Shown: positions 1,853 through 34,045 of the stretch, in pieces
Layout of the letters: the number at the start of each line of letters is the position of its first letter
Position numbering within the stretch: position 1 is the stretch's first letter
Origin: Minisyncoccota bacterium
Lineage (GTDB): Bacteria > Patescibacteriota > Minisyncoccia > Minisyncoccales > GBS-2
Length of the DNA stretch: 46,372 nt
Direction: 5' to 3'
Assembly: GCA_938023415.1 (NCBI GenBank)
Contig: CALHEE010000012.1
Location: 1 to 46,372, forward strand
Program-made: the position numbers and the translations under genes
Notes under the pieces: generated by a model
Told to the model about the DNA's origin: nothing
Seen by the model: only the letters and a program-made list of their open reading frames with translations
The model's database searches: none

Positions 1853-1876
1853 TTGATTTTTCTTAACAATTTTCAG

Positions 1877-2214
1877 TGGAGATGGCGAGAATCGAACTCG
1901 CGTCTGGAAAGTTAAACCTAAAATAGGGTTACAGGCTTAGTCTGGTTTAGAGGAAGGGTAAAGAGTAAAAACCAGACAAAATCTCTCTACCCATCATCCG
2001 ATGAAGTTTCGATAGTTCTTCTCGGATTTAAAAGAACTATCTATCTCGCAAATTATCACGCCAAAGATTAGCTAGCGAGAATCGCTAATTTTGGCGGCCT
2101 TAGCATTAAGCATAGGCTAAGGCAGGTTCTCTGGATAAGTTGGCACTTATTTTAAGGCAAAGAACGTGCCTGCCTATTTTAGGTTCACTCTCCATCGAAA
2201 CCTTTTGCATCCCC
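1877..2214 (-). ncRNA. ssrA: tmRNA (SsrA), about 338 nt, CCA not encoded
   Basis: On the minus strand the 5' end reads GGGGATGCAAAAGGTTTCGATGGAGAG (consensus-like GGGG...GG(A/T)TTCGA(C/T)GG). The 3' end reads GCGAGTTCGATTCTCGC-CATCTCC-A, i.e. T-arm plus acceptor strand. The 7-bp acceptor GGGGAUG/CAUCUCC includes the G3:U70 alanine identity pair. An internal tag frame follows AAAATAAGT. smpB is immediately upstream. Confidence 0.85.
2106..2144 (-). other. tmRNA tag reading frame: resume codon GCC, encoded tag ANLSREPALAYA, stop TAA with a second in-frame TAA two codons later
   Basis: Minus strand: ...AAAATAAGT GCC AAC TTA TCC AGA GAA CCT GCC TTA GCC TAT GCT TAA TGC TAA. The context resembles the E. 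coli resume region (AAUAGUC GCA AAC ...). Confidence 0.6.
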
Positions 2215-15624: not shown

Positions 15625-16291
15625 ACTTTACCTTGTTGCTACTCCAATTGGCAACCTAAAAGATCTCTCCTTTCGTGCTCTTGAAGTTTTAAAAGAGGTC
15701 GATTTAATCTTGTGCGAAGACACGCGGGTGGCAAAAAAATTATTGGCTCATTATCAAATTAAAACCCCAATTTTAAGTTATCACCAGCACTCAAGAATTA
15801 AAAAAATCAATTATATTCTTTCTCTTTTAAAAATGGGAAAAAATTTAGCTTTAATTTCTGATGCTGGAACACCTGGTATTTCCGATCCTGGGGGAAAACT
15901 TGTAAGTTTAGTAAAAGAAAAAACCCCTCAGGTAAAAATTACACCTATTCCTGGACCATCAGCCATCACTGCTGCTGCTTCAATTTCTGGCTTTTCTATG
16001 GAAAAATTTCTTTTTTTAGGATTTCCCCCTAAAAAAAGAAAAAGAAAAAAATTTTTCGAAGAAGTGGCCAATTCAAAATATCCAGTTATCTTTTACGAAT
16101 CGCCTTATCGAATAATAAAAACTTTAACCCAATTGGCTTTTTTTATTCCAGGTCGAGAAATAGTAGTTTGTCGGGAATTGACGAAAAAATTTGAAAGTAT
16201 TTACCGAGGAAAAATTGATGAGGTCATAAGGGAAATAAGCGAGGATGAAATAAAAGGGGAATTTGTGATAGTAGTTTCTGGTAAAATATAA
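15617..16291 (+). CDS. rsmI: 16S rRNA (cytidine1402-2'-O)-methyltransferase
   Basis: LYLVATPIGNLKDLS.RALEVLKEVDLI.CEDTR and DAGTPGISDPG are tetrapyrrole-methylase-fold RsmI signatures. Confidence 0.9.
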   Translation: MNKLYLVATPIGNLKDLSFRALEVLKEVDLILCEDTRVAKKLLAHYQIKTPILSYHQHSRIKKINYILSLLKMGKNLALISDAGTPGISDPGGKLVSLVKEKTPQVKITPIPGPSAITAAASISGFSMEKFLFLGFPPKKRKRKKFFEEVANSKYPVIFYESPYRIIKTLTQLAFFIPGREIVVCRELTKKFESIYRGKIDEVIREISEDEIKGEFVIVVSGKI

Positions 16292-21241: not shown

Positions 21242-21832
21242 GTGAAAATGAATCAAATAGAAAAAGCAGTTGAAGTTTTAAAAAAGGGAGGAGTAATTGC
21301 CTACCCCACCGAGACAGTCTATGGTTTGGGAGCGAATATTTTTGATAAAAAGGCAGTGGAAAAAGTTTATCGCCTAAAAGGAAGAGATTTTAAAAAACCC
21401 CTTTCGGTGGCAGTGGCTGACTTTCAAATGTTGGAAAAGTTAGTTATTCTTTCTCCCAGGGAGAAAAAAATCCTCAAAAAATTGTTACCAGGTCCCATCA
21501 CGGTGATTTTGCCAAAAAAGAAAATTGTTCCTTCTTGGGTAACAGGCGGTAAAAATTCAGTAGGCATTCGTTTTCCAAGAAATGAAATAACCCAAAAAAT
21601 TATCAAAAAAGCAGGCTTTCCCATTACTTCCACTTCCGCTAACTTAAGCGGAAAAAAAGAGCCGAGTAATTATAAAGAAATTAAGCTAAAAGTAGATTTT
21701 ATCGTCAAAGGAAAATGTCAGTACAAAAAACCTTCTACGGTCTTTGATTTAAAAAAGAAAAAAATCATTCGTCTGGGTGCAGGCATTAAAAATTTAAAAA
21801 ATATTTTTAAAAAAATATGTGCGGAATTGTAG
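21242..21832 (+). CDS. tsaC: L-threonylcarbamoyladenylate synthase (YrdC/TsaC type)
   Basis: GGVIAYPTETVYGLGAN, KGR...KPL and TSTSANLSG motifs. The ORF track uses GTG at 21242; the ATG at 21248 is equally plausible. Confidence 0.85.
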   Translation: MKMNQIEKAVEVLKKGGVIAYPTETVYGLGANIFDKKAVEKVYRLKGRDFKKPLSVAVADFQMLEKLVILSPREKKILKKLLPGPITVILPKKKIVPSWVTGGKNSVGIRFPRNEITQKIIKKAGFPITSTSANLSGKKEPSNYKEIKLKVDFIVKGKCQYKKPSTVFDLKKKKIIRLGAGIKNLKNIFKKICAEL

Positions 21833-23655
21833 GCTACATTGGAAAAAATTTAAATGCAAAAGAGGCTATTCAGCTTTTAAAAAGGTTAGAATATCGGGGT
21901 TATGATTCAGCAGGCCTTGCCTGGTTTTGCCCTGAAGAAAAAGAAATTTTTTTAGTGAAAAAGGCTGGGAAAATCGAAAAATTAGAAAGGGCGATTGAGG
22001 AAAGCAAATTAAATTTAAAAGGAAATGTTTTTATCTTGCATACTCGCTGGGCAACCCACGGCAACCCCACTGACATTAATGCCCACCCTCATTCAGATTG
22101 TAAAAAAGAAATTTTCTTAGTTCACAATGGGATTATCGAAAATTATCGCGAGCTTAAGGAAAAATTAACTAGAGAGGGGCACAAATTTTTAAGCGAAACT
22201 GACACTGAAGTTTTGGTGCATCTAATTGAAAAATATTTCAAATCTAACTTAGAAGAGGCGGTCAGGTTAGCCTTAAAAGAAGTGATTGGAGCTTATGCCA
22301 TTGCGGTTATTTCCAAAAGAGAACCAGAAAAAATCGTCTTTGCTAGAAAGGGAAGTCCCCTTTTGATTGGCCTAGGAGAAGGGGAAAATTTTGTTGCTTC
22401 TGATACCCCGGCAATTTTAGCTAAAACGAGAAAAGTAATTTATTTAGACGAGGGAGAAATGGGTTTTATTACCAAAGATCAATTTAAGATCTTTGATCTA
22501 AACCAAATTCCTGTTGAGAAAACTTCCCATTTTATTGAATGGACAATAGAGCAGGCAGAAAAGGGAGGTTGGCCTCATTTCATGATCAAAGAGATCATGG
22601 AAGAACCAGAAGCGATTGAAAATGCCTTAAGAGGAAGGGTAATTTTGAAAGAAGGATTGGTAAAATTAGGAGGATTAGAAAGAATTGAGGAAACTCTTAG
22701 AGAAATCGAAAAAATGACCATCATCGGAATGGGAAGCGCCCTTTTGGCCGGAAAGGTCGGGGAGTACATGTTGGAAGAATATGCCCATTTACCAGTAGAA
22801 GTAGAAAATGCATCAGAATTTCGCTACAAAAAATTCATTTTTGGAAAAAAAGAAGCGGTTTTGGCAATTTCCCAGTCTGGAGAAACCGCCGACACCCTTT
22901 TTGCGCTCAAAGAGGCAAAAAGAAAAGGAGTTTTAACTTTAGGCATTGTCAATGTCGTTGGTTCTTCAATTGCTCGGGAAGTAGAAGCTGGGGTTTACAA
23001 TCATGCCGGACCAGAAATTGGGGTGGCAGCGACCAAATCTTTTGTTTCCCAGTTGACAGTTTTGGCTTTGCTTACTGTATTTTTAGGAAGAGAAAGGGAA
23101 ATGAGTTTGGTCATGGGAAAAAGAATTTTAGAAGAATTAGTAAGGCTTCCCCAGTTAGCAAGAAAAATTTTGAGAAAAAAAGAAAAAATTAAAAAATTAG
23201 CAAAAAAATATTGTCGATATAAAAACTTTCTCTTTTTGGGGAGAAAGTACAATTATCCGATTGCCTTAGAAGGAGCTTTAAAATTAAAAGAAATTTCTTA
23301 TTTACATGCGGAAGGTTATCCTGGGGGAGAAATGAAACATGGACCTATTGCCTTAATTGATGAAAATTTCCCGACCATTGCCATTTCGCCGTTAGATTCA
23401 GTCTATGAAAAGATGATTTCTAATTTAGAAGAGATTAAAGCGAGGAAAGGTAAAATTTTAGCCATTGCTACTCAAGGAGATAAAAAAATAAAAAAAATTG
23501 CTGACGATCTTTTTTATATTCCAAAAACCTTAGAAATGCTTACCCCGATTTTATCGGTTATCCCCTTGCATCTTTTTGCCTATTTTGTTGCCAAAGAACT
23601 CAAGAGAGAAATTGACACACCTCGAAATTTGGCCAAGAGTGTCACTGTAGAATAA
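21817..23655 (+). CDS. glmS: Glutamine--fructose-6-phosphate aminotransferase (isomerising)
   Basis: The MCGIVGYIG N-terminal nucleophile, two SIS domains (SQSGETADT) and a C-terminal KSVTVE ending. It overlaps the tsaC 3' end by 16 nt. Confidence 0.95.
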   Translation: MCGIVGYIGKNLNAKEAIQLLKRLEYRGYDSAGLAWFCPEEKEIFLVKKAGKIEKLERAIEESKLNLKGNVFILHTRWATHGNPTDINAHPHSDCKKEIFLVHNGIIENYRELKEKLTREGHKFLSETDTEVLVHLIEKYFKSNLEEAVRLALKEVIGAYAIAVISKREPEKIVFARKGSPLLIGLGEGENFVASDTPAILAKTRKVIYLDEGEMGFITKDQFKIFDLNQIPVEKTSHFIEWTIEQAEKGGWPHFMIKEIMEEPEAIENALRGRVILKEGLVKLGGLERIEETLREIEKMTIIGMGSALLAGKVGEYMLEEYAHLPVEVENASEFRYKKFIFGKKEAVLAISQSGETADTLFALKEAKRKGVLTLGIVNVVGSSIAREVEAGVYNHAGPEIGVAATKSFVSQLTVLALLTVFLGREREMSLVMGKRILEELVRLPQLARKILRKKEKIKKLAKKYCRYKNFLFLGRKYNYPIALEGALKLKEISYLHAEGYPGGEMKHGPIALIDENFPTIAISPLDSVYEKMISNLEEIKARKGKILAIATQGDKKIKKIADDLFYIPKTLEMLTPILSVIPLHLFAYFVAKELKREIDTPRNLAKSVTVE

Positions 23656-23671
23656 TTAAAAAGCTTTTTCT

Positions 23672-23680
23672 TTTGAGTTT
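23672..23680 (+). repeat. Left copy of a 9-nt direct repeat (tttgagttt) bracketing the two-gene cassette
   Basis: The identical 9-mer recurs at 25417-25425. Both copies lie just outside the expression signals of the two cassette genes. It is short and AT-rich, so chance is not excluded. Confidence 0.3.
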
Positions 23681-23684
23681 TCGG

Positions 23685-23693
23685 TGGTAAAAT
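23685..23693 (+). promoter_or_regulatory. Candidate extended -10 promoter element (TGgTAAAAT) for the cassette's + strand gene
   Basis: tggtaaaat lies 40 nt upstream of the ATG at 23733, and no good -35 is present. AT-rich DNA makes chance matches likely. Confidence 0.3.
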
Positions 23694-23717
23694 GAAAGTG
23701 GACCTTCGAAAATTAAA

Positions 23718-23724
23718 AAGGAGG
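23718..23724 (+). promoter_or_regulatory. Strong Shine-Dalgarno (AAGGAGG), 8 nt before the ATG at 23733
   Basis: Read directly: aaaaaggaggtggtggaaATG. Confidence 0.75.
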
Positions 23725-23732
23725 TGGTGGAA

Positions 23733-24827
23733 ATGTTTAGGAGGAAGGTTTTAGATCAGTCTTTGGATAAAGTGGTCGAGATGTTAAGGATGCTTTCTCA
23801 GTTACTCACTAAGCTTCAAGATTCCCTTTCTGGAACAAAGACTGAGCTTTTTGAAATTGCCCAAAAATTGGATGATTCCAGAAAAAGAACGCTTGAAGAA
23901 ATAGAACTTTTGAGAAAAGAGATCCAGGAACTCTTGGTCTCTCATATTACTTCCCAAGAGACGGGAGTTCATCTTCTTGTTGATGGAGACAATGTTTTAC
24001 ATAGACTTTCTGATCTTGAACGACGGCTTGATTGGAAAAAATTTTTGGAAAAAATAGAAGAAGTTTACGGTAAAATAAGGGGAGCTTTCTTTTTCGCCAA
24101 TTTTGTGCCTGAAGCTTTAGGAAACTTCATTTCCCAGGTGGCTGGCTTTGATATTGTCACTACCTCTTTTGGACGACCCAGCACAAAAGATCTTACTGAT
24201 TCCAGAATTCTTCGTTACATTGAAAACATCCCCTCTCCTGGAAGCCGGATAATTCTTTTTACCGAAGATAGGAGCTTAAGAAGAAAAGCAGGAGAAATTG
24301 CACAAAGGAAACATCTTCAATTTATTCCCTTATTTTTCGATTCCCAATTTCCCCATTCTGTAAGAGATACCAACGGCAATTTCTCTCTTTCTCTTTTTTT
24401 GCCCCGACACATTTTACCTGAAGCACTGATCACGCCCAATCTCTGGGAAGAGGCCTTAGAAAGGTTTCTTGAGGAAAAGTATGTGAATCCAGAAAAAGTA
24501 GCCATTGACCACTTTCTTTTGGTAGCTCTCCGTTGGCTTTTTTCAAACCTCCCTTCTTCTCCAAAAAGAGAGGGAGAACGCTTCCCCCGATCCTTTATCC
24601 ATTTGGCAAAAGAGCTCTTAGAGTTTCTCAGAGCCTACCAACCTTTCAGTCCTTTCCCTGATTTTCATCTCTCTGAAGCAGATACCATTGCCATTCTAGA
24701 TGCTCTTTTAACGAAAGATCTTTTGCGAAAGGCAAAAATAGGAGAATTAGAAGTTTGCTATCGGGCTTTGCATCAACAGTGGAAAGGTTTGAGAAAGTGG
24801 CTACCAAGAGTTTCTGAGGAAGCTTAA
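23733..24827 (+). CDS. Coiled-coil + NYN/PIN-like (LabA/DUF88-type) nuclease-fold protein with an uncharacterised C-terminal domain
   Basis: The N-terminal ~85 aa are heptad-rich (LTKLQDSL...LEEIELLRKEIQELL). The central block matches the three acidic NYN motifs: HLLVDGDNV ... TKDLTDSRIL ... RIILFTEDRSLRRKA. The last ~160 aa are unrecognised. The ORF track starts at GTG 23724; I prefer ATG 23733 because of the SD spacing. It is GC-richer and Lys-poorer than its neighbours. Confidence 0.6.
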   Translation: MFRRKVLDQSLDKVVEMLRMLSQLLTKLQDSLSGTKTELFEIAQKLDDSRKRTLEEIELLRKEIQELLVSHITSQETGVHLLVDGDNVLHRLSDLERRLDWKKFLEKIEEVYGKIRGAFFFANFVPEALGNFISQVAGFDIVTTSFGRPSTKDLTDSRILRYIENIPSPGSRIILFTEDRSLRRKAGEIAQRKHLQFIPLFFDSQFPHSVRDTNGNFSLSLFLPRHILPEALITPNLWEEALERFLEEKYVNPEKVAIDHFLLVALRWLFSNLPSSPKREGERFPRSFIHLAKELLEFLRAYQPFSPFPDFHLSEADTIAILDALLTKDLLRKAKIGELEVCYRALHQQWKGLRKWLPRVSEEA

Positions 24828-24836
24828 AATAAACAA

Positions 24837-24876
24837 GGGGCTTCCAAAGAGAAAAGAGTTTTTGGAAGCCCCTTTT
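24837..24876. terminator. Strong bidirectional intrinsic terminator shared by the two convergent cassette genes
   Basis: Perfect 12-bp stem, ggggcttccaaa (24837-24848) with tttggaagcccc (24861-24872), around a 12-nt loop. TTTT follows on the + strand, and TTGTTTATTTT follows on the - strand. Confidence 0.8.
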
Positions 24877-24907
24877 AAAGTGCCTCAACCCCCCAAAGGC
24901 TCTGCTT

Positions 24908-25390
24908 TTATTTTTGTCTTTTTTCATGTCCGCCTCCTAAGAAAGGGAAAAGCGCTTTTTCATTGCTAGTGATGATTTCCAATTTTCCACCAGTAAGGAT
25001 TGCAATGACCCTTTCTCTTTTTTCCTCTCTTCTTACTTCAAAGAGCAAGGAGGCGCCAAAATGACGGGTAGTTAAGTTTTGGAGAGCAGGAGCGATGGGT
25101 TTTCCTTCAAGCCAAAGAGCTCCCAAGAGGGTGCCGTATTCATTTTCGAGTAGCACCCAGTAGCTACCTGATTTGTCCCATCTTCTTCTTTTCGCTGCAG
25201 TGATAAGAAGTTGTAAAAGTTCAATATGCCGATCTTTATCAGGGTCATTGGAAAGAAGTTCTTCCAGTGTTGCTCTAAAGATTTGCTGTATTTCTCTGCG
25301 TCCCAATCGACGTAAAAGAGACAAGAAAGAAGAGCCTGTATGGTTGAAGGCAGGGGATCCCTCCACCGGTACTGAACTCTTTTCCAACAT
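24908..25390 (-). CDS. Hypothetical protein (160 aa), no recognisable family
   Basis: ATG at 25390 is preceded by GGAGGTGA with 7 nt between the GGAGG core and the ATG. Arg/Leu/Glu-rich and Lys-poor, unlike host proteins. It ends 36 nt from the shared terminator. Confidence 0.6.
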   Translation of the reverse strand: MLEKSSVPVEGSPAFNHTGSSFLSLLRRLGRREIQQIFRATLEELLSNDPDKDRHIELLQLLITAAKRRRWDKSGSYWVLLENEYGTLLGALWLEGKPIAPALQNLTTRHFGASLLFEVRREEKRERVIAILTGGKLEIITSNEKALFPFLGGGHEKRQK

Positions 25391-25394
25391 CCCA

Positions 25395-25402
25395 TCACCT
25401 CC
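25395..25402 (-). promoter_or_regulatory. Strong Shine-Dalgarno (GGAGGTGA) for the 160-aa cassette gene
   Basis: The minus strand reads GGAGGTGATGGGATG. Confidence 0.75.
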
Positions 25403-25416
25403 TTTTTATGTGCTAC

Positions 25417-25425
25417 TTTGAGTTT
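25417..25425 (+). repeat. Right copy of the 9-nt direct repeat (tttgagttt)
   Basis: See the left copy at 23672-23680. Confidence 0.3.
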
Positions 25426-25515
25426 AAAATTTTAATTTTTTTTTGTCAAGGGAATATTTGACCAATGTTACTTGTGAAAGAGTGATTTTTATGATATGCT
25501 GAAGTTATCTGAATT

Positions 25516-27174
25516 ATGGAAAAAACCAATGACTTTTCCATCTTAATTGGAGGAGAGGCTGGCCAGGGATCAAGATGGGCGGGAAACTTAATTGCCAAAA
25601 TCTTTAATTTTTTAGGATATAAAATTTATGTTTATGAAGATTATCAATCATTAATTCGTGGTGGTCACAATTTTTCTCAAATTAGAGTTGCCGAGAAAAA
25701 AGTGGAGGCAAGAAAAGAAAAGGTTGATTTTCTTTTGGCCCTAGACAAAAAGACTCTTTCCCTACATCAGAAAAGGTTAACCAAAAAAGGAATGATTGTT
25801 TTCAATAGCAATCGCCTTAATTCAAAAGAAGGGGTGGGCATTCCCATTGAGAAAATCGTTCAGGAAATGGGAGGCCTTCCGATAATGGCAAACACTGCCT
25901 TGGTTGCTGGTTTTTCTAAAATTGTGGGAATTGATTTTGAGGTAGTAAAAGAAGTTTTAACAAGAGAACTTAAAAAGGGCATAGATTTGAATTTAAAAAT
26001 CGCGGAAAAAACTTTTCAAGAAACAAAAACATACTTTAAAATTAAAAAATTTAAAAAAAGCAAGACCACCATTTTGACCGGAAATGAAGCAGTAGCCCTG
26101 GGTTTGGCAAAGGCAGGCTTAAAATTTTATTTTTCCTACCCAATGACGCCTGCCACCTCAATCATGAATTTTTTGGCCCAAAGAGATGATTTAGGGGTGA
26201 AAGTGGTTCAGCCAGAAAATGAAATCTCCGTAATTAACATGGCCTTAGGTTCAGCTTATGCGGGGAAAAAAACAGCAGTGGGAAGTTCAGGTGGGGGATT
26301 TGCTCTCATGGTAGAGGCTTTAAGTTTGGCTGGTCAATCAGAAACCCCAATTTTAATTGTGGAAAGCCAGCGGGCAGGTCCTTCTACCGGCATGCCAACT
26401 TATAATTTACAATCTGATCTTTTGTTTGTTTTGTCCGCTGGTCACGGTGATTTTCCCAGATTTGTCATTGCTCCTGGAGACAGCGAACAATGTTTTTTCT
26501 ATGCTGGTTTGGGTTTAAATTTAGCCTGGAAATATCAAACCCCAGTCATTTTGTTACTTGATAAAGATCTTTCAGAAAATACTTTTTCCGTTAATGAAGA
26601 AATTTTTGAAAGAGTAAAACCAGAAGAAATAGTCTCTTGGAATAAAAAAGGAGATTACAAAAGATACCAAATTACAAAAAATGGCATTTCTCCCTTAGCC
26701 TTTCCCGGAGAAAAAGGAATAATTGTTAAGGCCAACAGTTACGAACACGATGAGTTTGGGATTAGTAGCGATTTAGAAGAGGTGGCTCAAAAAATGCAGG
26801 AAAAAAGATTTCGAAAATACCAGACAATTGAAAGAGAGGTGGCGAAGTTGCCAGCAGTTCAGGTTTATGGGAGAAAGAATTCAAAAATCGCTTTGGTTTC
26901 TTTTGGTATTTCAAAAGGGGCATCATTGGAAGCAGCTGAAAATTTGGGGATAAAATTAATTCAACCTGTGATTTTGGAACCTTTTCCAAAAAGGCAAATG
27001 AATTTAGCCTTGAGAGGAGTAAAAAAAATATTTAGCGTAGAAATGAACACTTCTGGCCAACTTGCCAAACTACTAACTCAAAATGGGATAAGAGTAGATG
27101 GAAAAATATTAAAATATACCGGAAGACCATTTTTCCCTTCAGAAATTGAGAGAAAAATTAAAAAGATGGTATGA
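25516..27174 (+). CDS. 2-oxoacid:ferredoxin oxidoreductase, fused gamma-alpha subunit
   Basis: The N-terminal gamma-type domain (ILIGGEAGQG) is followed by an alpha-type domain (LTGNEAVALGLAKAGLKFYFSYPMTPATSI, GGGFALM). Confidence 0.85.
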   Translation: MEKTNDFSILIGGEAGQGSRWAGNLIAKIFNFLGYKIYVYEDYQSLIRGGHNFSQIRVAEKKVEARKEKVDFLLALDKKTLSLHQKRLTKKGMIVFNSNRLNSKEGVGIPIEKIVQEMGGLPIMANTALVAGFSKIVGIDFEVVKEVLTRELKKGIDLNLKIAEKTFQETKTYFKIKKFKKSKTTILTGNEAVALGLAKAGLKFYFSYPMTPATSIMNFLAQRDDLGVKVVQPENEISVINMALGSAYAGKKTAVGSSGGGFALMVEALSLAGQSETPILIVESQRAGPSTGMPTYNLQSDLLFVLSAGHGDFPRFVIAPGDSEQCFFYAGLGLNLAWKYQTPVILLLDKDLSENTFSVNEEIFERVKPEEIVSWNKKGDYKRYQITKNGISPLAFPGEKGIIVKANSYEHDEFGISSDLEEVAQKMQEKRFRKYQTIEREVAKLPAVQVYGRKNSKIALVSFGISKGASLEAAENLGIKLIQPVILEPFPKRQMNLALRGVKKIFSVEMNTSGQLAKLLTQNGIRVDGKILKYTGRPFFPSEIERKIKKMV

Positions 27175-27977
27175 AAAAAAATAATTTAAGTAATTTAGAA
27201 ACATATTGCAAAAACACCTGGTGCCCAGGCTGTCCTAATTTTGGGATTTTAGAAGCTACAAAAAGGGCAATTTCTGAACTCATTGAAAAGGGAATAGCCA
27301 AAGAAAATTTCGTTTTAACTTGCGGGATTGGTTGCCACGGAAAAATTGTTGATTATTTAAATTTAAACTCTTTTTATAGTTTGCATGGAAGATCCCTTTG
27401 TACCGCCCAGGGAATAAAATTAGCTAACCAAAATTTAAAGGTGATTGCCTTTGTTGGGGATGGAGATATTTACAACGAAGGCATTTCCCATTTAATTCAT
27501 GCTGCTAAAAGAAATTCCGACATTACCGTTTTGGTCCATGACAATCGAAATTTTGCTTTAACTGTCTCCCAATTCACCGCCACCTCTCCAAAGGGATTTA
27601 AAGGAAGTTCTACCCCAAAAGGAAGCGTAGAAGAGCCCATCAATCCTTTGGAGTTGGTTTTCACTTCTGGAGGAACATTTATTGCCCGAGGCTACGCTTT
27701 AAAAATTGAGCATTTAAAAGAGTTAATTATAAAGGCAATAGAGCACAAGGGTTTTTCTTTTATAGAAGTTTTACAGCCTTGTATCACTTTTTTTGATAAT
27801 AGAAAATTTTATGAGGAAAGAATTTATGAATTACCAGAAATTAATCTCACCTCCCAAAAGGAAGCTTTGGAGAAAATAAGAGAATGGGATTATAAAAACG
27901 GTGACAAAAATATTCCCATCGGTCTCTTTTATAAAGTGGAAAAACCAACATTTGAAGAACTAATTTTTTCAAGCTGA
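27171..27977 (+). CDS. 2-oxoacid:ferredoxin oxidoreductase, beta (TPP-binding) subunit
   Basis: WCPGCPNFGIL, GIGCHG and GDGD..NEG (TPP/Mg motif). There is an ATGA overlap with the alpha gene. Confidence 0.88.
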   Translation: MKKNNLSNLETYCKNTWCPGCPNFGILEATKRAISELIEKGIAKENFVLTCGIGCHGKIVDYLNLNSFYSLHGRSLCTAQGIKLANQNLKVIAFVGDGDIYNEGISHLIHAAKRNSDITVLVHDNRNFALTVSQFTATSPKGFKGSSTPKGSVEEPINPLELVFTSGGTFIARGYALKIEHLKELIIKAIEHKGFSFIEVLQPCITFFDNRKFYEERIYELPEINLTSQKEALEKIREWDYKNGDKNIPIGLFYKVEKPTFEELIFSS

Positions 27978-29318: not shown

Positions 29319-29400
29319 GCCGAGGTGGCGGAATGGCAGACGCGCGAGGCTTAGGACCTCGTGGGAAATTCCCTTGTGGGTTCAAATCCCACCCTCGGCA
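29319..29400 (+). tRNA. tRNA-Leu (anticodon TAG), type II with long variable arm, CCA not encoded
   Basis: Acceptor GCCGAGG/CCTCGGC plus discriminator A. Anticodon stem CGAGG/CCTCG with loop CT-TAG-GA. Long variable arm TGGGAAATTCCCTTG. T-arm GTGGG-TTCAAAT-CCCAC. Confidence 0.92.
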
Positions 29401-29402
29401 CT

Positions 29403-33953: not shown

Positions 33954-33960
33954 AATCTTG

Positions 33961-34045
33961 TGCCGCGGGAGGGACTTGAACCCTCACGAGGTATTGCCTC
34001 ATGCGATTTTGAGTCGCACCTGTCTGCCAATTCCAGCACCGCGGC
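33961..34045 (-). tRNA. tRNA-Leu (anticodon CAA), type II, CCA not encoded
   Basis: The minus strand reads GCCGCGG TG CTGGAATTGGCAGACAG G TGCGA CT-CAA-AA TCGCA TGAGGCAATACCTCGT GAGGG TTCAAGT CCCTC CCGCGGC A. Its 5' end is 19 nt downstream of the topA stop, on the same strand. Confidence 0.92.

Follow-up and report, generated by a model that had tools for sequence, protein, structure and literature searches.

Rare and fast-evolving: the genes of a probable, divergent NYN-type (PIN-like) nuclease and its orphan partner at the glmS|porA site of a Patescibacteria lineage

Two convergent genes and their expression signals

The 46,372-nucleotide (nt) contig CALHEE010000012.1 of a Minisyncoccota bacterium, here called the window (46 kb, W in comparisons), carries between glmS and the genes porA and porB a cassette of two convergent genes, orfA and orfB (cassette interval 23672-25425). 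An earlier note, made from the letters of the window alone, had described this cassette as compositionally foreign and horizontally acquired and had proposed it as an undescribed system, and it is reconsidered here together with relative loci (L001-L013) and related proteins (P0008-P0011). The two cassette genes are rare and evolve fast; one encodes a probable nuclease of a divergent NYN (PIN-like) type and the other an orphan partner, and there is about an even chance that the cassette represents a clade-restricted accessory module of a Patescibacteria lineage, in which a regulated NYN-type endoribonuclease is combined with a co-evolving partner.

The gene orfA (23733-24827, plus strand) encodes 364 amino acids (aa), and orfB (24908-25390, minus strand) encodes a basic orphan protein of 160 aa (pI 9.7). 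The genes are 80 nt apart, and there is no other substantial open reading frame (ORF) between the flanks. A GTG at 23724 was considered as the start of orfA and is ruled out by its position inside the ribosome-binding site. This site is an extended Shine-Dalgarno (SD) sequence, AAGGAGGTG, which is located 6 nt before the ATG (23718-23726, plus strand), matches the complement of the 16S 3' tail over 9 nt and is kept as AAGGAGGTGA or AAGGAGG in 7 of the 9 family loci. A putative promoter with the extended -10 element TGGTAAAAT can be read from the sequence at 23685-23693 (plus strand), and a TAAAAT or TATAAT box is found at equal distance to the SD in L001, L003, L005, L007, L010 and L012. The SD of orfB, AAGGAGGTGAT, is located 3 nt before the ATG (25394-25404, minus strand) and has with 11 nt the longest match of the window; like the promoter-like site TTGACA-17-TAAACT (25421-25449, minus strand; 10 of 12 consensus matches), it is conserved in L001 and L003.

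Between the two genes there is a hairpin (24835-24874) with the features of a shared bidirectional intrinsic terminator, which are a perfect 14-bp stem (arms 24835-24848 and 24861-24874), a 12-nt loop and T-rich tails on both strands. Its predicted energy is -26.5 kcal/mol on the plus strand and -23.9 kcal/mol on the minus strand (z-scores -4.8 and -3.5), and L001, L003 and L007 retain the stem core GGGGCTTCC/GGAAGCCCC. The common GC-rich bidirectional terminator had already been recognised, but the stem has 14 bp rather than the 12 bp reported, and it ties for the longest perfect stem of the window, of which it is the sole GC-rich one. The second perfect 14-bp inverted repeat is AT-rich (TTTCTTTTTTTAGG, loop of 7 nt) and is located at 16007-16041, inside or beside a coding region. 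Each cassette gene would have its own promoter, a short leader and a near-perfect SD of 9-11 nt, and the transcripts of both would end at the one common hairpin.

The two SD sequences, previously described as textbook GGAGG sites, are real and stronger than that description. When scored against AAGGAGGTGATC, the presumed complement of the host 16S 3' tail, 31 of the 34 non-cassette genes have a match of at most 5 nt upstream of the start and the other three have 6 nt, whereas orfA and orfB have the only matches of at least 7 nt in the window. The scarcity of SD sequences is seen also in L001, L003, L010 and L005, in the last case including ribosomal-protein genes, and leaders are typically A-rich. 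The orfA family, orfB, the partner gene in L012 (12-nt match, AAGGAGGTGATC) and one orphan ORF in L001 stand out from this pattern. This orphan (L001:2644-3072, minus strand) lies between leuS and glmS and encodes an Arg-enriched, Lys-reduced protein of 142 aa (8% of each) at a GC content of 42%; it has a TTGACA-17-TATAAT promoter-like site and the SD AAGGAGGT, and no relatives were found among the loci compared.

In a subgroup of the Parcubacteria the anti-SD motif is often undetected (PMC9297842), and in Bacteroidia that are SD-blind the autoregulated rpsU stands out by an extended SD (PMC9976891). Like in these Bacteroidia, a few genes of an SD-free lineage keep an unusually long and deeply conserved SD, but the genes in question are a nuclease and an orphan rather than bS21, the phylum is a different one, and a regulatory loop would be hypothetical here. 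A few very long SD sequences in an otherwise SD-free genome bear on the mRNA choice by reduced ribosomes. There is a small chance that the cassette is an undescribed, Patescibacteria-specific two-component nuclease module whose expression would be controlled at translation in a manner that resembles rpsU of the Bacteroidia, as the host ribosomes would disregard SD sequences in nearly all genes and the conserved SDs of 9-11 nt would limit the making of nuclease and partner to a special ribosome state or condition, and which would have a conflict or stress-response role, exchangeable partners and allele swapping via the flanks. Leader hairpins that sequester the SD were considered and rejected, with a consensus energy of -0.7 kcal/mol and single-sequence z-scores of -1.6 for orfA and -0.1 for orfB; the same applies to AAAGTRGMAC as a common operator-like leader motif, which occurs in the orfB leader only, a single match being at chance level. 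An Rfam scan of the cassette detected no RNA family.

The GC content of the cassette is 41.0% as compared to 35.0% in the window, and this is above every other stretch of 1754 bp (mean 34.9%, standard deviation (sd) 2.0%, about +3 sd); the hand-counted GC values of the earlier note were reproduced exactly in all eight lines. The two genes have GC fractions of 0.40 and 0.43. The excess sits mainly at codon positions 1 and 2 (GC1 0.51-0.52, GC2 0.35-0.41) and stems mostly from the amino-acid composition, and GC3 is 0.34-0.36 versus about 0.30 in host genes. The proteins are indeed poor in Lys and rich in Arg and Leu, with 0.51, 1.97 and 1.44 times the host frequencies, respectively, and R/(K+R) is 0.57 and 0.60 versus 0.13-0.48 in the 34 other genes. 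Among synonymous codons, the choice made for Lys, Glu, Asp, Arg, Ala, Val and Thr follows the host, whereas Leu (p=3e-6), Phe, Ser and Tyr depart from it, so that the deviation that had been expected exists in GC content and in these four codon families, but not in most others. Orthologues of orfA are GC-richer than their neighbours in L001, L003, L005, L007 and L010, in L003 and L005 also at GC3; P0008 and P0009 are fully AT-rich.

The surplus of 6 points in GC, which is the window maximum, the Arg-rich and Lys-poor proteins, the strong SDs in an SD-poor host and the like signature of the L001 orphan with its GC content and SD would all agree with a cassette that came in recently from a foreign donor with a higher GC content and regular use of SDs, and that has not yet adapted to the composition of the host. 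Such an import is nevertheless very unlikely, as GC3 is only 4-6 points above the host, most codon families are host-like, the members of the orfA family are all found on similar low-GC contigs (30-38% GC), and one locus related to the cassette region belongs to a named Patescibacteria metagenome-assembled genome (MAG). There are also no marks of mobility. In agreement with the earlier note, no integrase or transposase gene is found in or beside the cassette, which is flanked by glmS and porA/porB, and there is no tRNA at a cassette junction. The 9-nt direct repeat TTTGAGTTT that had been taken to bracket the cassette is present at 23672 and 25417, but it is not significant: a common 9-mer occurs in 18% of the pairs of 100-nt windows spaced 1.7 kb, and the left copy is not conserved in L003, which is why a target-site duplication is rejected. 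The right copy (25417-25425) is part of the orfB promoter and leader, where it extends across the -10 box and the start region. Likewise, a 17-nt inverted repeat (23714-23730 / 25392-25408) has been rejected as a pair of transposon ends, since it arises because both genes carry the same extended SD.

The OrfA and OrfB proteins

In the AlphaFold2 (AF2) model, OrfA begins with a long helix (residues 2-74), which is predicted to form a coiled coil (residues 1-75, 23733-23957, plus strand). There follows an alpha/beta domain (residues 79-222) that was modelled at a predicted local distance difference test score (pLDDT) of 80-95 and that corresponds to an NYN/PIN-like domain of about residues 78-226 (23964-24410, plus strand), and the remainder is a helical C-terminal domain of low confidence (residues 227-364, 24411-24824, plus strand). 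With this model, Foldseek finds 2qip (VPA0982) as well as the MARF1 NYN structures 6fdl and 5yaa at a probability of 1.0, and the root-mean-square deviation (rmsd) to these structures is 3.1-3.8 Å over about 135 residues, with template modelling scores normalised to the target (TM-target) of 0.56-0.63. KHNYN and Rae1 are matched as well, and NYN and LabA-like proteins match OrfA in a viral library. The OrfA profile finds P0011 at E=4e-10, and P0011 scores 26.7 bits on PF01936 (residues 41-157), above the gathering cut-off of 24.2. The alignment of the OrfA family, which has 8 members and goes down to 24% identity, contains the residues D84, G85, T155, D156, T177 and D179 as invariant positions, and D203 is present in 7 of the 8. 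The conserved Asp residues follow strand 1 and strand 4 and are found also where a helix begins. OrfA thus does have a nuclease fold, and by fold and homology it most likely belongs, as a divergent representative, to the NYN (PIN-like) nuclease superfamily, and the nuclease-fold effector of the earlier note is thereby recovered.

Several points weigh against this assignment. The AF2 model was built from 3 sequences and has an overall pLDDT of 63. The W OrfA has no match to the Pfam NYN or PIN models even at E<=1, and OrfA profiles (whole, NYN-only and C-terminal-only) find no NYN chain among the PDB sequences, but coiled-coil or random matches only. The assignment hence combines one transitive link with a structural model. 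The usual NYN motif is 'DxD', and its second Asp is replaced by Arg, Lys or Asn throughout the OrfA family, which is why catalysis might be altered or lost. Neither the C-terminal domain of OrfA nor OrfB has a confident AF2 structure. Scans of the W OrfA with Pfam, NCBIfam, PADLOC and PHROGs gave coiled-coil noise only.

Foldseek lists also Can2, Csa3, Csx1 and ring-nuclease CARF proteins at probabilities of up to 0.97, and the C-terminal motif LLxxGLLRKAKIGEKEVCYRA resembles, when read by eye, the recognition helix and wing of a winged helix. OrfA could on this basis be a CARF-like or Rossmann-like ligand sensor that is fused to a DNA-binding winged helix, like in Csa3-like regulators. This is highly improbable. 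The matches have rmsd values of 13-18 Å and TM scores of 0.2-0.3, as opposed to the compact NYN matches with about 3 Å and a TM-target of about 0.6, and as the rmsd is above 13 Å, the CARF matches are as little credible as those to SUMO-E1. In addition, one protein of the family scores above the Pfam NYN threshold, the residues that never vary are Asp at strand ends as in PIN-like nucleases, and no CRISPR or cyclic-nucleotide genes are nearby. A CARF motif includes Ser or Thr at the second position behind the strand-4 Asp, and such a residue is not conserved in the 8-member alignment of the OrfA family.

As an NYN protein, OrfA would be an unusual one. The alpha/beta domain superposes with the PF01936 family (LabA-like/DUF88, VPA0982 2qip) and with MARF1, and P0011 passes the PF01936 cut-off, but OrfA itself remains below PF01936 detection and has the N-terminal coiled coil of 75 residues. 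Many NYN proteins carry a helical and possibly nucleic-acid-binding domain after the nuclease domain, and OrfA is helical at this position as well; in contrast to MARF1, which combines NYN with LOTUS/OST-HTH domains, the C-terminal domain of OrfA matches no LOTUS/OST-HTH or other model. Rae1/YacP of Bacillus subtilis (5mq9) is a single-gene bacterial RNase acting on mRNA, a role like the one proposed for OrfA, and shares the NYN fold (Foldseek probability 0.80), yet this structural match is much weaker (rmsd 10 Å), and Rae1 is a ribosome-associated protein of about 160-170 aa that has neither a coiled coil nor a C-terminal domain. Most likely, OrfA would act as a Mg2+-dependent endoribonuclease, with an acidic centre that would be formed by D84, D156, D179 and, in most relatives, D203. 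The 75-residue coiled coil would most likely drive oligomerisation, and recognition of the substrate or of a partner would fall to the helical C-terminal domain.

OrfB is basic across its family (pI 9.6-10) and has no match in Pfam, NCBIfam, PADLOC, PHROGs or the PDB. Its AF2 model is poor (pLDDT 53) and finds no fold match, so that OrfB is still what it had been called before, a partner of unknown type. A relationship of OrfB to OrfA was considered and rejected, as a profile comparison found no relation.

Relatives, insertion site and exchange between lineages

Full-length relatives among 5.8 billion clusters number only two for each of the cassette proteins (identities for OrfA/OrfB of 88/87% and 54/53%), and for OrfB there is one further partial relative on L007. 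The relatives of OrfA and OrfB share contigs and are encoded in the same convergent layout, directly upstream of porA/porB. In an exhaustive HMMER search of 1.84 billion representative proteins, the OrfA family was found to comprise 6 clusters only, all of them full-length. No OrfA relatives were found in GTDB genomes, JGI metagenome contigs or IMG/VR, and tblastn searches of phages and plasmids gave no match for either protein; neither OrfA nor OrfB has relatives on viral contigs.

The order glmS-orfA-orfB-porA is kept where glmS is 80-93% identical to that of the window. L001 has 93% identity in glmS and 98% in porA, L003 has 85% and 79%, and L007 has 80% in glmS, 40% in OrfA and about 35% in a truncated OrfB. 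The module is thus in the same slot in all four close lineages seen (W, L001/L002, L003 and L007). At L013, which is more distant (glmS 64%, porA 52%), the order is leuS-glmS-porA-porB, and only 9 nt separate glmS from porA. This is an empty site, with the direct adjacency of glmS and porA that one would look for in a cassette-free relative. In L004, a Patescibacteria MAG (porA 68%), the position of the cassette directly upstream of porA is taken by a vapBC-like pair (L004:18-625), which consists of a 75-aa ORF and a 132-aa PIN-domain protein (PF01850, E=4e-14). The empty site in L013 and the vapBC-like pair in L004 show that the cassette was inserted at a variable slot. The insertion is old and is fixed within a narrow clade, and the module would have inserted between glmS and porA in the ancestor of that clade and would then have been inherited.

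The empty site as such would be compatible also with the recent import considered above. However, the cassette is in the same slot, with its composition kept, in lineages that have diverged to saturated dS (synonymous substitutions per synonymous site), and judging from this synteny the recent import is largely refuted. The claimed horizontal acquisition thus holds in so far as there is an insertion relative to L013 and a recently moved block of about 5 kb, described below, but not in the sense of a recent foreign import.

In the comparison of W and L001, the background dS is 1.0-1.35, whereas the 3' part of glmS, porA and the 5' part of porB have a dS of only about 0.09. Outside this block there are about 20 mismatches per 100 nt, in the block flanks 2-3 and in the cassette 5-14, with sharp steps at the cassette edges. 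Because the dS of the flanks is far below the background, a block of about 5 kb (about 22450-27450), which includes the 3' part of glmS, the cassette, porA and the 5' part of porB, has been exchanged recently between diverged lineages, with the caveat that a low-divergence block of this kind in W and L001 could also be an assembly chimera. Within the block, orfA has a dS of 0.14 and a dN/dS (dN, non-synonymous substitutions per non-synonymous site) of 0.39, with 0.80 in the coiled coil (small counts), 0.24 in the NYN domain and 0.49 in the C-terminal domain, and orfB has a dS of 0.29 and a dN/dS of 0.24. Both genes are under purifying selection and are therefore real genes. Between W and L003, dS is above 1 (saturated), and the dN of the cassette is 0.35-0.41 versus 0.09-0.13 in the neighbours, which is 3-4 times faster. 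Either the cassette evolves several-fold faster than its flanks, or it has a separate allele history. With homologous recombination in the flanking genes, lineages would swap the module, and an accessory module that has no mobility genes would in this way spread between diverged lineages by way of its housekeeping flanks.

The most distant OrfA homologues with visible context are P0010 (L005/L006) and P0011 (L010/L011), the loci of which differ from the glmS|porA site. Both are neighboured by the gene of a GTPase of about 300 aa (MMR_HSR1 and TGS, DRG/Obg-like; L005:9014-9931, minus strand, and L010:3795-4694, plus strand); the two GTPases are 59% identical to each other, and there is no copy in the 46-kb window.

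Possible role of the pair and neighbouring features

The convergent pair is complete in W, L001/L002 and L003 and partly present in L007, and the identities of OrfA and OrfB to W run in parallel (88/87%, 54/53% and 40/about 35%). OrfB is small and basic and diverges at the rate of OrfA; most likely it would bind the nuclease and modulate it as an inhibitor or adaptor. The expected co-occurrence of the two genes is thus found in the close lineages, but it does not extend to the P0010 and P0011 loci, which lack orfB.

Several observations speak against such a module. No orfB-like gene is present at the P0010 and P0011 loci within the available flanks, which extend to 10 kb for L005 and only to about 1-2.7 kb for L010/L011. 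L012, the OrfA of which is 63% identical to that of L007, has a convergent ORF of 170 aa as neighbour, and hhalign, BLASTP and HMM comparisons gave no support for this partner as a diverged OrfB. At greater distance the insertion slot itself is variable, with vapBC in L004 and nothing in L013. As evolution is fast and partner and slot are variable, a conflict system would also fit.

OrfA might then be a stand-alone, lineage-specific RNase and OrfB an independent orphan, so that the two would be unrelated neighbours. In this case one would expect what is indeed seen, namely orfA homologues that stand alone as monocistronic genes in the P0010 and P0011 lineages, another neighbour in L012, and separate promoters of the two cassette genes. 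It would, however, leave unexplained that both genes have been co-retained in four lineages with near-identical divergence, that the same rare extended SD is found on both of them and also on the replacement partner in L012, and that they have a common, conserved terminator, and independence of the two genes is for these reasons rather unlikely.

The earlier note had also considered defence or a toxin/immunity-like pair, in which OrfA would be a toxic NYN RNase that is checked by or triggered through OrfB and is kept as a protection against phages or competitors. Such a function would make sense of the nuclease fold, of the 3-4 times faster evolution of both proteins as compared to their neighbours, of the hyper-divergent cassette with its sharp edge steps inside a recently exchanged block and of the dN/dS of about 0.8 in the coiled coil (small counts). 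It would also agree with a variable partner slot, which in L012 is occupied by a convergent ORF that is not homologous but has the same SD, and with the cassette slot being taken by vapBC in L004 and empty in L013. Searches with PADLOC, PHROGs, phages and plasmids nevertheless gave nothing meaningful in this direction. With PADLOC-DB v2, OrfA has weak matches of coiled-coil level to LmuB and DRT models only (E 0.02-0.09; none below 0.024), there are no phage or plasmid relatives, and no toxin-antitoxin (TA) family of Pfam or NCBIfam matches OrfA or OrfB. The cassette neighbours are leuS, tsaC, glmS, porAB and murA, and there are no defence genes nearby. These neighbours do not form a defence island, and the presence of the module is not patchy among the close lineages seen. 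In addition, the solitary OrfA homologues, which occur without OrfB, retain the catalytic Asp residues, the module is fixed at one housekeeping locus in four close lineages, and selection is purifying overall.

The comparison with VapBC, likewise an arrangement of a PIN-like nuclease beside a small partner, and one that is found at the equivalent slot of L004, points in the same direction. Whereas VapBC is encoded as an antitoxin-first operon, orfA and orfB are convergent and have separate promoters, and unlike in type II TA systems there is neither a co-directional operon nor a constant cognate partner; OrfA has 364 aa with extra domains, OrfB has no recognisable antitoxin DNA-binding fold, and there are solitary OrfA homologues. 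A toxin-immunity or defence function is thus rather unlikely, though possible, and the role of OrfA and OrfB would lie in RNA turnover or quality control rather than in defence, RNA turnover control having been among the earlier suggestions as well. With its old and fixed slot, mostly host-like codons, no link to defence or TA systems and OrfA occurring without OrfB at distance, the cassette is not established as an undescribed system. What is new is a divergent NYN family with a new domain architecture and an orphan partner, and not a demonstrated new kind of system. Patescibacteria are an uncultured group and have tiny genomes with many genes of unassigned function; where RNA metabolism or conflict biology particular to this lineage is concerned, a rare but conserved nuclease with a partner of its own is a concrete candidate, and the practical value of the locus is that of a lead.

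Some features of the surroundings can be added. The interval between leuS and glmS is variable, as it contains in the window an ORF of 196 aa (21242-21832, plus strand), which we take by eye to be Sua5/TsaC-like, and in L001 the opposite-strand orphan, whereas leuS and glmS overlap in L013. In L003, an intein that carries a LAGLIDADG homing-endonuclease domain (Pfam Intein_splicing, LAGLIDADG_3) splits glmS (L003:3-2723). Elsewhere in the window and not adjoining the cassette, there are two tRNA-Leu genes (29319-29401, plus strand, anticodon tag; 33960-34045, minus strand, anticodon caa) and a tmRNA gene (1874-2214, minus strand) with the tag peptide ANLSREPALAYA.

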